Source: a virus. From it: a stretch of 64,000 nucleotides of DNA. The stretch lies in the IMG/VR virus record IMGVR_UViG_3300031555_001876. One strand, written 5' to 3'. The notes below the pieces were generated by a model. It made no database searches and was not told the origin of the DNA. It was given only the letters and a program-made list of their open reading frames with translations. Positions 15,648 to 63,398 of this stretch are shown here, one piece after another. Numbering within the stretch: position 1 is the first letter of the stretch; every line of letters begins with the position of its first letter. The translations under genes and the position numbers were made by a program.

Positions 15648-17711
15648 TTGGCAAGTTATACATTAACTAATTTAATTTCCAATGGTAACTTTTCCTCTAG
15701 TTCAACCTCTGGATGGGGTGGTGATAATGGTTCAGTCGCAAGAACAACTTATTTAGGTAAAACTTGTTTATAGGTAACCGCTAGTAGACAATATGGTGGT
15801 GCTGCCTATTCATTTACTGGAGTTGCTAATAATGTATATTATTTTTCTGCTTTAATGGCTAAAAGTAATAATAATTTAGCAGGAGTTTCTATCGAATATC
15901 GGTCAAGTCCTTGGAGTTCTTATGGTAGATATGAAACCACAAAGAATTTAGACTCTTGGACTAAAATTAGTTTTACTTGTCCAATAGCAAGTAAAACTGG
16001 TGTTGGAGTAAAAATTGATACAACTAGAGCAGCAGCCGTATCTTCTACAATATATCTTACTGATTTTATATTAATTAATTTGACTAAACACTTTGGCGCG
16101 GGTAATGAACCCTCCTCTGCTTGGTGTGATAAAAATATATCTTATTTTAGTAGTACAACTACAGTATCAGCAGATACCTTTGAAATAAGTCCTGATACTT
16201 TACAAGATGGAGATATTCTTGAATTTTATACTACAAATAAAGCAGAAACTATTCACCTTCCAAAAGGAATATATAAATTTGAATGCTATGGAGCCAAAGG
16301 TGGTTGTAACAGAAATGATTCTAGTGCATATGGTGTTGGTGGCTCTGGCGGATATTCAGTTGGTACTGTTAAATTAAAAGATAAACTTACTCAACTTTTT
16401 ATTTATCCTGGTGGCGCTGGATACGAGGCTGATAGTTCTACTGCTACTTGCGGAGGTTTTAATGGCGGTGGTACTGCTAAATATTCTGCTGGCAGCGGTG
16501 GCGGTGCTTCAGATATTCGTATAGGCACTGACTCTTTATATGCGAGAGTAATCGTCGCAGGTGGCGGTGGTGGCGCGCAAGGACGTGGCTCTACTTCCTA
16601 TAAAGCAAGTGGCGGCGCAGGTGGCGGTTTATCAGGCCAATATGGTGGATATTATGGTACACTTGTTGAAGATACAACTAATGGTGGTCCTGGTGGCACT
16701 CAAACCGCAGGTGGTGGTGTCGTGAGTTCCACATATGGAAACACTGCTGGTAGTTTTGGTATTGGTGGTAATGGCGGCTATAGAAGTTCGACATATGGAG
16801 GCACTGGTGCTGGTGGCGGCGGCTGGTATGGCGGCGGCACTGGTTATAACTACTATTCTGGTGGTGGCGGTGGCTCTGGTTATGTTTATACAAGCGAAAC
16901 CGCTTCTAATTATCCATCTGGATGTTTATTAAATAGTAATTATTATTTAACTGACGCGCAAACTGTAGCAGGCACTTCCTCTTTCCCCATTCGTGATGGA
17001 TTCGAAGCAGTTGGCAATGAAGCGCAAGGTTTAGTCAGAATTACTGTTATTAAACTATCTAAAGTTCCTATCCGAGTAAAAACCACTTCAAATACTTGGA
17101 AAGAAGCAGTAAGTGCTTGGGTCAAAGTTAATTCAACCACTTGGAAAGAACTCGCAAGTCTCAAGACAATTAGAGTTCCTAATGGATATACCGCTTTAGA
17201 ATATATTGAAAGTTCAGGTACTCAATATATTAATACTGGATTTAAAGCAACTAATAATACTAAAATGATTTTAGATGCTGAACTTACTTATGGCTCAAGT
17301 TGGATTATGATTGCTGGTTCTTATGATTCTGGCGCTTATTATTCTTGGTGGGCAAAAGCATCTCAATTATATAGTTATTATGCAAGTTCTAATCAAAATA
17401 TGGCAGGTCCAACCCAACGAACAAAATTAATTGCAGATAAAAATAATTGGAGTTATGATGCTAATACTTTATCATTAACAAATACTTCATTTACTGCAAC
17501 TAATCCAATATATTTATTTAGTGTAAGTAATGGTGGTAGTTATGCAAATGCTTCTATGAAACTATATTCTTGTCAAATTTATGATAATGGAACTTTAGTT
17601 CGTGAATTTTAGCCTTGCATAAATCCAGATGGAGTAATAGGTTTATATGACATTATAAATAATGTATTTTATAGTAACGCGGGAACAGGTACTTTTGGAA
17701 CTCCTTCCTAA
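15648..17711 (+). CDS. Glycine-rich tail fibre protein (about 687 aa) with the shared C-terminal YSCQIYDN domain; TTG start; 2 in-frame TAG.
   Basis: Frame 0 opens after TAA 15645; TTG 15648 sits 8 nt after GAGGAG. TAG at 15771 and 17610; TAA stop 17709. Long GGxGG/YGG tracts 16300-16900. C-terminus matches the 11269 gene. Confidence 0.55.
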
Positions 17712-17733
17712 AATTTGATTTTTTTAAAAAAAA
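17705..17733 (+). promoter_or_regulatory. Sigma70-type promoter, family copy 1.
   Basis: TTGATT 17705-17710, 17-nt A/T-rich spacer, TATAAT 17728-17733; immediately upstream of the tRNA island. Confidence 0.55.
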
Positions 17734-17794
17734 ATGATATAATATATTTACAAAGTTAAGGGATAGAAAATCTTTTATCCCTTAACTTAAATAT

Positions 17795-17879
17795 GCCGGT
17801 GTCCCATAGTGGTCGATTGGAGCGGTCTTGTAAGCCGTCGGCTATACCCACGTCAGTTCGAATCTGACCACCGGCTCCA
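17795..17879 (+). tRNA. tRNA, 85 nt with a 13-nt variable region; anticodon loop reads CTTGTAA (tentative anticodon UGU); identity uncertain.
   Basis: Acceptor GCCGGTG/CACCGGC plus discriminator T plus CCA. T-arm GTCAG-TTCGAAT-CTGAC. D region CCA-TAGTGGTCGAT-TGG. The best anticodon stem, GCGGT/GCCGT, has two G-U pairs. Confidence 0.55.
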
Positions 17880-17913
17880 TTCAAAAAATAAAATGAGAAA
17901 AAGGTGTTATATT

Positions 17914-18267
17914 ATGAAGTATTCTCTGGATAAGTATAAGTATTTTATTGCAAAGAAGACTGATGGTACTCCCTATCAAGTAATTGCGGTTTCCACTTAT
18001 GCGGGTAAGACAGTGCGCGGTGTCGCTAAACTGACTCCGGGTGACGCGTTTGACGAAGCAAAGGGTCGAGAACTTGCGGCCGCACGTTGTAATGAAAAGA
18101 TTGCGCGCAAGCGTCTGGCTCGAGCAACGAAGAAGATGGCAGAAGCCAAGGCTTCCTATGAAAAGGAAAAGGCTTGGTATGATCGTATGATTAATTATTG
18201 TAATGACTCTATTCAGGCTGCTAATACTGCTCGTGAAAATGTAAGAGAACTTGAAAATAATATGTAA
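17914..18267 (+). CDS. Hypothetical protein, 117 aa (basic, coiled-coil).
   Basis: ATG 17914 in the frame of ORF-track 17809..18267; the track's upstream start overlaps the tRNA and is rejected. Confidence 0.55.
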   Translation: MKYSLDKYKYFIAKKTDGTPYQVIAVSTYAGKTVRGVAKLTPGDAFDEAKGRELAAARCNEKIARKRLARATKKMAEAKASYEKEKAWYDRMINYCNDSIQAANTARENVRELENNM

Positions 18268-18288
18268 GCGCTAACGCGCTTACTATAT

Positions 18289-18378
18289 GGAGGAATGGCC
18301 GAGTGGACGAAGGCGATTGTCTTGAAAACAATAGGCGGGTGAAACCGCCCGTGGGTTCGAATCCTACTTCCTCCGCCA
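18289..18378 (+). tRNA. tRNA-Ser (anticodon UGA), type II.
   Basis: Acceptor GGAGGAA/TTCCTCC plus G plus CCA. Anticodon arm ATTGT-CTTGAAA-ACAAT. Long variable arm GGCGGGTGAAACCGCCC. T-arm GGGTTCGAATCC. Confidence 0.85.
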
Positions 18379-61945: not shown

Positions 61946-61970
61946 CTTATAAAAAAATTTTTTATATAAT
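61942..61970 (+). promoter_or_regulatory. Sigma70-type promoter (TTGACT variant).
   Basis: TTGACT 61942-61947, 17-nt spacer, TATAAT 61965-61970. Confidence 0.5.
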
Positions 61971-62000
61971 ATATATAGATAATAAAAGAAGGAGAAAATT

Positions 62001-63119
62001 ATGAGTTATTTTCCAGAAGAGAAAATAAATAAATACGCGCCTGGCGCCGAATGCGTTCCTGCGATGAAAATCTGGAAACTGCCCGACGGCAAAGAGCATA
62101 TGTTTGCGGAAGTGGCAAATAGTGGAGATTATTTTGCTACTATCAAAAAAGATGGATATTGGTATGAATTTGAAAAAACCGATGATGGTGTCTGCTATAT
62201 GTTTAGTAGAACAGTATCAAAAGAATCTGGTATTCTATCTGAAAAAATTGCAAACGTTCCTCATTTGGAAAAGGCTCTTAATTGTCTCCCTAATGGAAGT
62301 ATTTTAATTGGCGAAATTTATTATCCTGGTAAAACATCAAAAGATGTAACCACCATTATGGGTTGTCTGGCTCCGAAAGCAATACAGCGTCAAGAGTTAT
62401 GCGGACCTATTCATTACTATGTACACGACATAGTTAAGTACAATGGAGTAGATTTAAAGAATGAAGGTGCTTGGACCCGTTTTCAAGTTCTCCAAAAAGT
62501 GTGGGAAAAGCATCAACTTTCTCGTAGACATATGTGTTTGGAACTCGCAGAGCCTATTCTTGATAATATTCAAGAAGCAACAGCCGAAGCGTTAAATAAT
62601 GGCGAGGAAGGTATGGTTCTTAAAAAGAAGGATGCTGTTTATTCTCCTGATAAACGGCCTGCTTGGTCTTCCGTGAAAATTAAGAAGATGGACTATGCTG
62701 ATGTTGTTTGTATGGGTGTTTGCGATGCTACAAAAGAGTATACAGGCAAAGACACTTCTACTTGGACTTATTGGGAAACTCCAGAGGGATTAAAACAAGG
62801 CGAATATTTTTTATGGTCTTGTAAATTCCCAGGATATTATGTCCCCGTAACCAAAGGTTATTTTTATGGTTGGAAAACCGCAATCCGTATTGGAGCATAT
62901 AATGATAAAGGTGAATTAGTTGAAATTGGTACAGTAGCATCTGGCCTTACTGACGAACTCCGCGAAAATTTAAAAAACTTCGATGATTATTATCTGCGCG
63001 TGTGCTCGGTGCAGTGTATGGAAAAGGATAAGCAAGAACACACGCTACGTCATCCCTTCTTTAAAGGATTTCGGGATGATAAAAACGCAAAAGATTGTAC
63101 ACTTGACACAATTTTTTGA
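62001..63119 (+). CDS. lig: ATP-dependent DNA ligase, 372 aa.
   Basis: ORF-track ORF; AAGGAG RBS. Motif I KKDGYW (KxDG) and downstream EGMVLKK. Confidence 0.75.
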   Translation: MSYFPEEKINKYAPGAECVPAMKIWKLPDGKEHMFAEVANSGDYFATIKKDGYWYEFEKTDDGVCYMFSRTVSKESGILSEKIANVPHLEKALNCLPNGSILIGEIYYPGKTSKDVTTIMGCLAPKAIQRQELCGPIHYYVHDIVKYNGVDLKNEGAWTRFQVLQKVWEKHQLSRRHMCLELAEPILDNIQEATAEALNNGEEGMVLKKKDAVYSPDKRPAWSSVKIKKMDYADVVCMGVCDATKEYTGKDTSTWTYWETPEGLKQGEYFLWSCKFPGYYVPVTKGYFYGWKTAIRIGAYNDKGELVEIGTVASGLTDELRENLKNFDDYYLRVCSVQCMEKDKQEHTLRHPFFKGFRDDKNAKDCTLDTIF

Positions 63120-63144
63120 CTTTTAAAAAAAAATAATGTAAAAT
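63116..63144 (+). promoter_or_regulatory. Sigma70-type promoter (variant).
   Basis: TTGACT 63116-63121, 17-nt spacer, TAAAAT 63139-63144. Confidence 0.4.
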
Positions 63145-63177
63145 AATATTTGTAAAGATTAAGGAAAAAAATTTTTA

Positions 63178-63372
63178 ATGAAAAAGAAAGAAATTAAAAA
63201 CTTGGCTCAAAAAATTGCTAAAATGGAATAGATAATTCAGTCTTCTGAAACAACTTTAGCAGAAAAATCTAAAGCAGAACAAGAGATTATGCGTTTATCA
63301 AGCCACGTTGATAGTTTTGAAGATATGATAATTATCGATGAAATAGTTTAGGAAATTCTTGAAAAATCTTGA
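63178..63372 (+). CDS. Small coiled-coil protein, 64 aa, 2 in-frame TAG.
   Basis: ATG 63178 after AAGGAAAAAA; TAG at 63229 and 63349; TGA 63370. Confidence 0.4.
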
Positions 63373-63398
63373 CTTAAAAAAAATTTTTTGATATAATA
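63369..63398 (+). promoter_or_regulatory. Sigma70-type promoter (TTGACT-18-TATAAT).
   Basis: TTGACT 63369-63374, 18-nt spacer, TATAAT 63393-63398. Confidence 0.5.

Follow-up and report, generated by a model that had tools for sequence, protein, structure and literature searches.

A putative regulon of strong sigmaA-type promoters repeated through the accessory arm of a large TAG-recoded Bacillota phage

What is the role of a sequence that is repeated ahead of replication, accessory and tRNA genes in a phage genome? The question is raised by IMG/VR record IMGVR_UViG_3300031555_001876, of which a stretch of 64,000 nucleotides (nt), here called the window, was analysed. The window has a GC content of 33% and comes from a large phage of Bacillota in which TAG is recoded (relatives are 130-200 kb). 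It carries 14 strong copies of a block of about 40 nt, TTGAyTTTT..AAAAAAtaTGaTATAATAT.TATA.AAA, all on the + strand. Judged by sequence alone, these copies quite probably form a regulon of maximal-strength promoters of the sigmaA or sigma70 type. This is an ordinary kind of phage early-promoter set, conserved across a phage family, and assignment to an 'early' class would follow from what the units encode and by analogy with SPO1 and Kayvirus, which have sigmaA-dependent early promoters (PMC13401047, PMC6445280). What is new is the coincidence of breakpoints with promoters, a lineage-wide change in the -35 element, an RpoD-like sigma factor encoded behind the same promoter in relatives, and the family-wide conservation of the block.

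The promoter block in the window and its relatives

A first-pass annotation of the window had described at least 15 near-identical copies and proposed a motif search. A position-weight matrix (PWM) built from the copies it listed separates 14 sites on the + strand, at 31-52 bits, from the rest of the window. After palindromic echoes of the same copies, the next-best real site is at 59064, with 10.3 bits. The repeat is thus real, with 14 copies plus one generic site at 59064, and the first copy begins at 17715 instead of 17705, a shift of 10 nt. The pattern TTGAYW-N17-TATAAT has 14 matches compared to 0.35 expected, and none of 100 dinucleotide shuffles reaches 14. Because generic sigma70-like hexamer pairs are not enriched in DNA of this base composition (101 versus 86±10; 87 versus 76±9), the enriched signal is the extended block and not the hexamers.

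Ten of the 14 copies are of the TTGATT type, and the four TTGACT variants lie at the right end of the window. All 14 share a 17-bp spacer. A -10 element of TATAAT accompanies TTGAYT in 12 copies, the other two having TATTAT and TAAAAT, and the extended form TATGnTATAAT is present in 10. In an alignment, conservation spans the region from the -35 element to about +12, and the flanks upstream are unrelated among copies. The spacers of the copies at 61942 and 63369, designated type B, have the reverse run order, with an A-run followed by a T-run.

Relatives were collected by an IMG/VR search with the DUF2828 protein encoded in the window, which returned 66 loci at 48-84% identity on contigs of up to 201 kb. 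A family logo anchored only on TTGA-N19-TATAAT comprises 350 unique sites on the gene strand, compared to 23 on the opposite strand. At un-anchored positions, T occupies positions 6-9 in 76-81% of sites and A occupies positions 13-17 in 68-92%, and T19, T21 and G22, which form a TRTG extended -10, reach 91%, 92% and 55%. Position 35 (-1) is a pyrimidine in 90% of the 350 sites and position 36 (+1), 7 nt after the -10 element, is a purine in 96%, which would constitute a start signal at the level of sequence. The spacer is 17 bp in 351 sites, and any other length from 14 to 21 bp occurs in at most 13. Among 509 unique family copies, 54% have an RBS (ribosome-binding site) and start codon 20-60 nt past the -10 element (mode 30-39 nt), compared to 7% of random positions. 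The block recurs hundreds of times, in a strand-specific manner, in more than 100 related IMG/VR phage contigs, and an exact-pattern scan finds it in more than 116 further stretches of large viral contigs.

This anatomy matches element by element that of the bacterial housekeeping promoter, which consists of a -35 element, a 17-bp spacer of four regions, TRTG in Firmicutes, a -10 element, an A/T discriminator and a start element (PMC12641261). The four spacer regions run from a T-rich tract through a low-signal stretch and another A/T tract to an extended -10 that contains G, the A/T discriminator is typical of Terrabacteria, and the start element is a pyrimidine at -1 followed by a purine at +1 (PMC12641261). 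A spacer with a T-tract, a low-signal stretch, an A-tract and TG raises promoter strength in bacteria generally (PMC12641261). Because of this match, conservation over 40 nt can be understood without the need for an extra factor. Both this sequence logic and the comparison with related phages strongly support the sigma70-type promoter reading of the first-pass annotation.

In twelve copies, an RBS and start codon follow at a distance of 25-50 nt (114 nt for the copy at 35508), and the other two head the tRNA island. The copies (P1 to P14) and the generic site, together with the genes and open reading frames (ORFs) that they head, are as follows.

17715..17754, + strand: P1, TTGATT-17-TATAAT, PWM score 47.8 bits, 50 nt upstream of tRNA-Thr(TGT) (17795-17879)
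18696..18735, + strand: P2, PWM score 51.4, with about 100 nt from its -10 element to the amber-suppressor tRNA(CTA) (18826-18900), which is followed by tRNA-Gly, tRNA-Lys and an SLH-domain ORF
30713..30752, + strand: P3, heads the MVP-like gene 30777-33227, with terminator 30668-30700 immediately upstream
34124..34163, + strand: P4, begins directly after the stop codon of 33281-34123 and heads an IceA-like gene and a DNA methylase gene (one in-frame TAG)
35508..35547, + strand: P5, followed by the conserved leader hairpin 35553-35574, a DUF2726-type ORF with four TAG codons, the DUF2828/DUF7788 gene and a second DUF2726-type ORF
38891..38930, + strand: P6, with an upstream terminator stem (38855-38892) that overlaps the -35 element, the promoter T-tract serving also as the U-tail
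41497..41536, + strand: P7, heads the NAMPT-like/macro/NAD-synthase operon, with terminator 41456-41495 upstream
44676..44715, + strand: P8, heads a single metallophosphoesterase gene, with terminator 44643-44674 upstream
45462..45501, + strand: P9, heads a longer unit (kinase-like, metallophos, SPFH/flotillin) that extends to terminator 48720-48751
53331..53370, + strand: P10, TTGACT with -10 TATTAT, heads 53384-54113, with terminator 54117-54145 downstream
56878..56917, + strand: P11, heads gyrB, with terminator 56838-56879 overlapping the -35 element
61942..61981, + strand: P12, TTGACT with an A-run then T-run spacer, inside the 3' end of gyrA, heads the ATP-dependent DNA ligase gene
63116..63155, + strand: P13, TTGACT with -10 TAAAAT, heads an ORF of 64 amino acids (aa) with two TAG codons
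63369..63408, + strand: P14, TTGACT, heads a 92-aa ORF
59064..59092, + strand: generic sigma70-like site TTGACA-17-TACAAT upstream of RNase H/gyrA, 10.3 bits, 11/12 hexamer match, without the family spacer

A perfect TTGACA-17-TATAAT also occurs antisense within the macro-domain gene (43380-43352, - strand). It does not have the family spacer and may be a chance match or an antisense promoter.

Unit size varies between a single gene (44731-45459) and five or more (45.5-48.7 kb), with about 5-9 at most. Genes for replication and accessory functions, as well as tRNA genes, stand behind this promoter class and virion genes do not, a distribution that fits an early class. As the first-pass annotation had stated, the structural block is free of copies apart from the tRNA island, the PWM scan finding none in 1-17.7 kb or 19.4-30.7 kb. 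The contrast between a promoter-rich accessory and replication arm and a promoter-free structural block holds in relatives as well. There are 415 anchors per 1.12 Mb in accessory-region loci compared to 3 per 157 kb in structural-region loci, which are centred on homologues of a structural-block gene, and two loci from one contig (L017 and L206) exhibit the same difference.

Block edges, terminators and concerted change

Pairwise comparison of loci at 80-99% nucleotide identity reveals that 117 of 518 alignment breakpoints fall within -20 to +60 of a copy, compared to 2.9% expected under uniform placement, with sharp peaks at both edges of the block. Among 44 distinct indels, nine have inserts flanked by copies on both sides and one copy left at the corresponding empty site, the homology overlapping by 20-62 nt, and in another 11 a copy lies on one flank. 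For example, locus L032 carries a 2,783-bp insert (L032 11629-14413) relative to L034 in a background that is 97-99% identical, and its cargo is an MVP-like gene. The empty site in L034 consists of the left junction up to the -10 element and the right junction from the discriminator onward, and the crossover falls between the -10 element and the RBS. In relatives, the MVP-like gene is a promoter-flanked presence/absence cassette. Other indels carry an Eco57I-type methylase and its partner ORF, a protein with an HD domain, or homing-endonuclease-like genes of the DUF2726 type (the latter in L019 and L026). Recombination at the block is likely, with the caveat that a conserved island at gene boundaries attracts alignment ends and that promoter-bearing morons placed beside a resident promoter would look alike.

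Ten contigs carry the ligase gene of the window. Two independent metagenome contigs among the ligase carriers (L297 and L298) both start inside the copy at 61942, at position 61967. Just beyond 64000, a contig that is 100% identical has a 332-aa GIY-YIG ORF where another has short ORFs only (L295 versus L296). These observations hint at population-level variation at these boundaries.

Intrinsic terminators of -18 to -22 kcal/mol are fused to five of the 14 window copies (30668-30700, 38855-38892, 41456-41495, 44643-44674 and 56838-56879), and in several of these the terminator tail is the T-tract of the promoter itself. Across the family, a strong hairpin, defined as one of -15 kcal/mol or lower that ends within 8 nt of the -35 element, lies directly upstream of 85 of 509 copies, compared to 15 of 1018 random positions and 39 of 1500 RBS controls. 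A promoter and stem-loop combined in one intergenic element thus characterize 5 of 14 copies in the window and 17-24% of family copies, a minority that nonetheless exceeds controls by 6- to 11-fold. The association is real but limited to this minority. The first-pass annotation had placed almost every copy directly after a hairpin and T-run, which is true only for those at 30713, 38891, 41497, 44676 and 56878. Its picture of insulated single-gene or short units needs qualification, as units may also hold several genes and a terminator insulates only about a third of the copies.

The fifth base of the -35 element is uniform within genomes and differs by lineage (chi-square 206, df 41, p = 9e-24), which indicates that copies change together. 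Some genomes are of the TTGAT type only (e.g. 13 of 13 or 14 of 15 sites), others are of the TTGAC type only (8 of 8 to 13 of 13), and a few are mostly TTGAA. The orthologous promoter ahead of the DUF2828 gene matches the -35 type of its genome. Such concerted change could arise from copying or conversion among copies, which would fit the evidence for the promoter as a cassette boundary, or from adaptation to a reader acting in trans.

Candidate readers of the block

Since every core-promoter element is at or near its optimum, host sigmaA with the core RNA polymerase (RNAP) of the host should fire these units upon DNA entry. The start would be followed by a purine-rich leader of about 25 nt with an RBS. 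Units fired first would supply anti-defence and accessory genes, NAD salvage, gyrase, ligase, RNase H, and the tRNA island including the amber suppressor. An RpoD-like phage sigma produced from the same promoter could then reinforce the units in relatives, and possibly here. The structural genes and most TAG-rich genes, which do not have the block, would need another means of initiation. About a third of the copies abut an upstream intrinsic terminator and would form promoter-terminator junctions resembling the PeSL elements of T4-like phages. Because its 40-nt sequence is repeated, the block would also act as a boundary and probable recombination substrate for the gain and loss of accessory cassettes.

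The phage sigma in this scheme is drawn from relatives. Searching all ORFs of the fetched loci with Escherichia coli RpoD yields nine distinct RpoD-like ORFs of 290-348 aa (E 1e-59 to 4e-80) in about 2 Mb of family loci, or roughly one per genome-equivalent. Their best NCBIfam matches are RpoD models, with scores below the equivalog cut-offs, and they cover regions 1.2-4.2 without region 1.1. The -35/-10 contact residues Q437, E585, R588 and Q589 are invariant in all nine, and the TG-reading residue H455 is present in six. A profile scan of IMG/VR finds at least 582 such sigma genes in viral sequences. Among the best 80 of these, 24 loci bear the block, and 18 of those 24 have an anchor 65-175 nt ahead of the sigma match, usually with another after the gene. 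Because anchors precede and usually follow it, the sigma gene is a promoter-flanked unit of the block regulon, with the following examples.

L003 16211-17257; L022 15348-16220; L059 18477-19496; L083 7508-8512; L215-L286: RpoD-like sigma loci, single-gene unit between two block copies

Some jumbo phages without their own RNAP are reported to encode a sigma close to cellular RpoD that recruits the host core (PMC7824862). From the conserved contacts, a phage sigma with the same specificity is likely a second reader of the block in relatives, and transcription by host RNAP alone is uncertain because relatives encode this protein behind the same promoter.

How far might this second reader extend? 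One tentative and, in our view, rather unlikely reading holds that the block is the regulon of a phage sigma that mimics the housekeeping sigma, such that sigmaA fires once and a feed-forward takeover follows, in which the phage sigma captures core RNAP for a phage-specific 'super-consensus', with the suppressor tRNA and the cassettes included. If true, the presence of the suppressor tRNA in the regulon would wire the genetic-code switch to a feed-forward loop, and the repeats, evolving in concert, would join exchangeable cassettes, the MVP-like gene among them. It is unlikely that the block is chiefly the cognate promoter of the phage sigma, which would bring host core RNAP to an extended form of the consensus peculiar to the phage, possibly defining a middle class with an auto-amplifying loop. 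The frequency of the nine RpoD-like ORFs, their match to RpoD, their conserved contact residues and the anchors ahead of sigma genes are all in keeping with this idea, and the lineage-wide -35 variants suggest a co-evolving trans factor. However, there is no sigma gene within the 64-kb window, a sigma gene behind the same promoter needs prior transcription, which points back to host sigmaA, and residue 584 (R or K) of the phage sigma does not track the use of TTGAT, TTGAC or TTGAA. Moreover, the conserved contacts predict host sigmaA specificity, so the two readers are not mutually exclusive.

A partial palindrome in the spacer (A-T5-6 ... A5-6-T) could in principle be an operator through which a dimeric phage or host regulator switches the whole regulon. 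The reverse complement of some copies still reaches 14-19 bits on the PWM, and T at positions 6-9 mirrors A at positions 14-17 in the family logo. Nevertheless, this possibility is very doubtful, as the spacer layout is a general strength-raising architecture (PMC12641261), the palindrome centre varies in length and sequence, the type-B copies at 61942 and 63369 have reversed run order, and Pfam and PHROG scans of about 45 window ORFs identified no regulator or sigma. The operator reading was set aside because the general strong-spacer architecture suffices. It is barely credible that the block arose by chance in AT-rich DNA or is a repeat dispersed for recombination, replication or packaging, since, although breakpoints coincide with it and the genome is 33% GC, the shuffles do not reach its count and its strand polarity, 17-bp spacing, RBS phasing and un-anchored start signal are properties of promoters.

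Several points weigh against the preferred reading of a sigmaA-type promoter regulon whose copies also bound cassettes. No copy is involved in 24 of the 44 indels, and a conserved island at gene boundaries would by itself draw part of the breakpoints to the block edges. Conservation over 40 nt and the lineage-wide -35 switch exceed what optimisation for host sigmaA alone predicts, and given the RpoD-like sigma of relatives, the reader of the promoter may differ from host sigmaA. The TAG-bearing genes and suppressor tRNA in the promoter class blur a simple early/late division. Finally, whereas the motif with its statistics, anatomy, placement and conservation in the family is observed directly, as is its coincidence with breakpoints, we infer the transcription start sites, strength and timing of the block, as well as the sigma that reads it and recombination at it.

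Recoding, gene content and known promoter systems

Reading TAG as sense joins fragments into long ORFs, and Pfam matches cross TAG codons in the methylase, a radical-SAM protein and a DUF2726-type protein. Promoter-to-terminator units contain eight in-frame TAG codons in about 7,600 codons (1.05 per 1000). The figure is 5.4 per 1000 (14 in about 2,580) for right-arm segments that lie behind terminators without a copy (33281-34123, 48820-53330 and 54226-56837) and 3.8 per 1000 (30 in about 7,990) for the left arm. TAG is thus about four-fold rarer in promoter-driven units but not absent, with four codons in the ORF of the copy at 35508, two in that of the copy at 63116 and one in the methylase of the unit at 34124. 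The first-pass statement that no copy stands upstream of TAG-rich genes therefore captures a tendency and fails for the first two of these.

The suppressor tRNA(CTA) starts 130 nt after the start of the copy at 18696. Relatives have 45 tRNA(CTA) genes, about 14 of which lie within 300 nt of a copy, the others being located further down tRNA arrays. One ochre-type tRNA (TTA) occurs in family locus L131. Because the suppressor tRNA and some TAG-bearing genes share the promoter class, the early/late division does not cleanly follow the code. If these promoters fire first, the suppressor would be made early, and a delay of TAG-rich genes would rest on their own promoters or on tRNA accumulation, without late transcription of the tRNA. 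The sharing of a promoter class by the suppressor tRNA and TAG-poor genes constrains models of recoding as a late-gene timer. The recoding preprint of Borges et al. does not mention promoters.

An exact 24-nt repeat, the T-rich sequence AATTATTTATTTTTTTCTTWTTTT, is found at 24891-24914 and 54175-54198 (0.02 matches expected). It lies 30-55 nt upstream of the RBS of two TAG-bearing units that do not have the block, one comprising the structural genes of the + strand block and the other the PhoH and putative lysis genes. This repeat is a candidate late-class signal, unconfirmed in relatives. Inspection upstream of motif-less units in the window found nothing else of this kind, and the loci retrieved by means of a structural-block protein had diverged too far for alignment in the late-promoter search. 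The first-pass contrast between a host-RNAP-driven early class and a different late mechanism fares unevenly. The gene content fits an early class, the RpoD-like sigma of relatives qualifies a role for the host alone, and no late-promoter mechanism was found.

The left 30 kb of the window encodes tail-fibre-like and Hoc-like proteins. The right arm encodes the MVP-like protein, the IceA-like gene and methylase, DUF2828/DUF7788, an RNA ligase and the NAMPT-like/macro/NAD synthase set, followed by phosphoesterases, an SPFH protein, PhoH, GyrB, RNase H, GyrA and DNA ligase. At gathering thresholds, Rfam models match only five tRNAs in the window, and family loci L001-L210 are rich in tRNAs, with 879 predicted in 117 of the 210 loci. 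A host in Bacillota fits the Firmicutes-type promoter and is indicated by genome bins, Bacillus phage homologues and the SLH-domain protein encoded beside the tRNAs. Specifically, relatives of the DUF2828 protein occur on 14 phage-like contigs in metagenome-assembled genomes that are all labelled Bacillota (Oscillospiraceae, Acutalibacteraceae, Clostridia, Eubacterium, Selenomonadaceae and Mollicutes), which is binning evidence only, and its best cultured homologues are from Bacillus phages. A megablast search of 30-50 kb against GenBank phages and a sequence search of the DUF2828 protein against the PDB gave no match, and a search of bacterial genomes with the SLH-domain protein yielded no relative.

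Several features around the copies are of separate interest. The copy at 41497 heads an operon (41558-44621) for a NAMPT/NAPRTase-like protein, a macro-domain protein and NAD synthase, an NAD+ salvage set that might be used against NAD-depleting defences. The IceA-like (restriction-endonuclease-like) gene and an N6/N4 DNA methylase gene, which has one in-frame TAG inside its Pfam match, form a two-gene unit (34184-35497) bounded by the copies at 34124 and 35508. The MVP-like gene 30777-33227, with MVP shoulder and vault repeats, is near the DUF2828/DUF7788 gene 36450-38006, which is annotated as 'RNA-binding protein' in one RefSeq phage record. Protein searches with the MVP-like gene gave matches only in unannotated huge phages, and phage MVPs have already been reported (bioRxiv 10.1101/2023.11.10.566534).

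Three paralogous ORFs (33281-34123, 35668-36402 and 38086-38859) have Cys-rich N-termini and a DUF2726-type, endonuclease-like C-terminus, and look like free-standing insertions of the homing-endonuclease type. The second of these interrupts a conserved arrangement, as it is inserted between the leader hairpin 35553-35574 and the DUF2828/DUF7788 gene. In many relatives (e.g. L007 9950-9975, L024, L063 and L066), this hairpin, with its conserved loop UUGUCCAA, lies about 25 nt before the RBS of the DUF2828/DUF7788 gene. Its stems covary (CCUC/GAGG, UCUC/GAGA, GUUGC/GCAAC and AGAC/GUCU), with compensatory changes at all seven predicted pairs. In the left arm, an insert (3395-4418) that carries a GIY-YIG homing endonuclease ORF (3532-4287) with three in-frame TAG codons divides a large tail-fibre-like gene (phrog_14959) into parts at 482-3394 and 4419-7016. 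The 3' part of the insert (4231-4413) matches the Rfam group I intron model at 31 bits (E 7.5e-6), below the gathering score. Finally, ORF 55705-56490 has a Cys/His/'EGNTS' pattern and an SLH-like C-terminus, and two membrane helices are predicted in ORF 56487-56837. TAG codons occur in both ORFs, and neither has a Pfam match. Their sequence features suggest that the former may be a CHAP-type lysin and that both are putative lysis genes.

Because these phages are uncultured, the block is useful as a ready transcription map that gives predicted starts and unit boundaries for the early and accessory half of the genome. A pattern of one line recognises the phage family in metagenomes, and the findings point to a testable pairing of a phage RpoD-like sigma with a defined promoter set. 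The block should also serve as a very strong, compact and portable Firmicutes promoter.

Compared to the bacterial core promoter (Kuo et al. 2025, PMC12641261), the block shares the -35 element, 17-bp four-region spacer, TG/TRTG, -10 element, A/T discriminator and pyrimidine -1/purine +1 start. However, host promoters rarely unite all consensus elements, whereas the phage does so in dozens of copies per genome. Like the SPO1 PE and Kayvirus early promoters (PMC13401047, PMC6445280), the set has many strong host-sigma promoters, short early units and late genes on another signal. The sigmas of those phages are divergent and use other promoters, whereas the sigma of the relatives described here is RpoD-like and predicted to read the same consensus, and replication genes and tRNAs are also in the promoter class here. 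This sigma resembles the jumbo-phage proteins (Iyer et al. 2021, PMC7824862) in its closeness to cellular RpoD. In the portion of that study considered here, no cognate promoter regulon is tied to them, whereas the sigma gene of the relatives lies behind the block.

A further parallel is with the PeSL elements of T4-like phages (Arbiol et al. 2010, PMC2839356; Comeau et al. 2014, PMC4122927), in which a dispersed intergenic early promoter of sigma70 consensus is combined with a stem-loop terminator and flanks accessory ORFs. In both systems, repeated promoter elements flank plastic accessory ORFs, an insert has an element on both sides and the empty site a single one, and crossovers fall between the -10 element and the start codon. 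The block differs in belonging to another phage group with hosts in Bacillota, a TAG-recoded genome, a TRTG extended -10 and a T/A-tract spacer, and in having no A/T-rich UP-like region. Its stem-loop is not conserved in sequence, is present at about 17-36% of copies and is always upstream of the -35 element. The block thereby carries the PeSL concept, in which promoters serve to link accessory cassettes for recombination, beyond the T4-like phages of Gram-negative hosts to a family of Bacillota phages.

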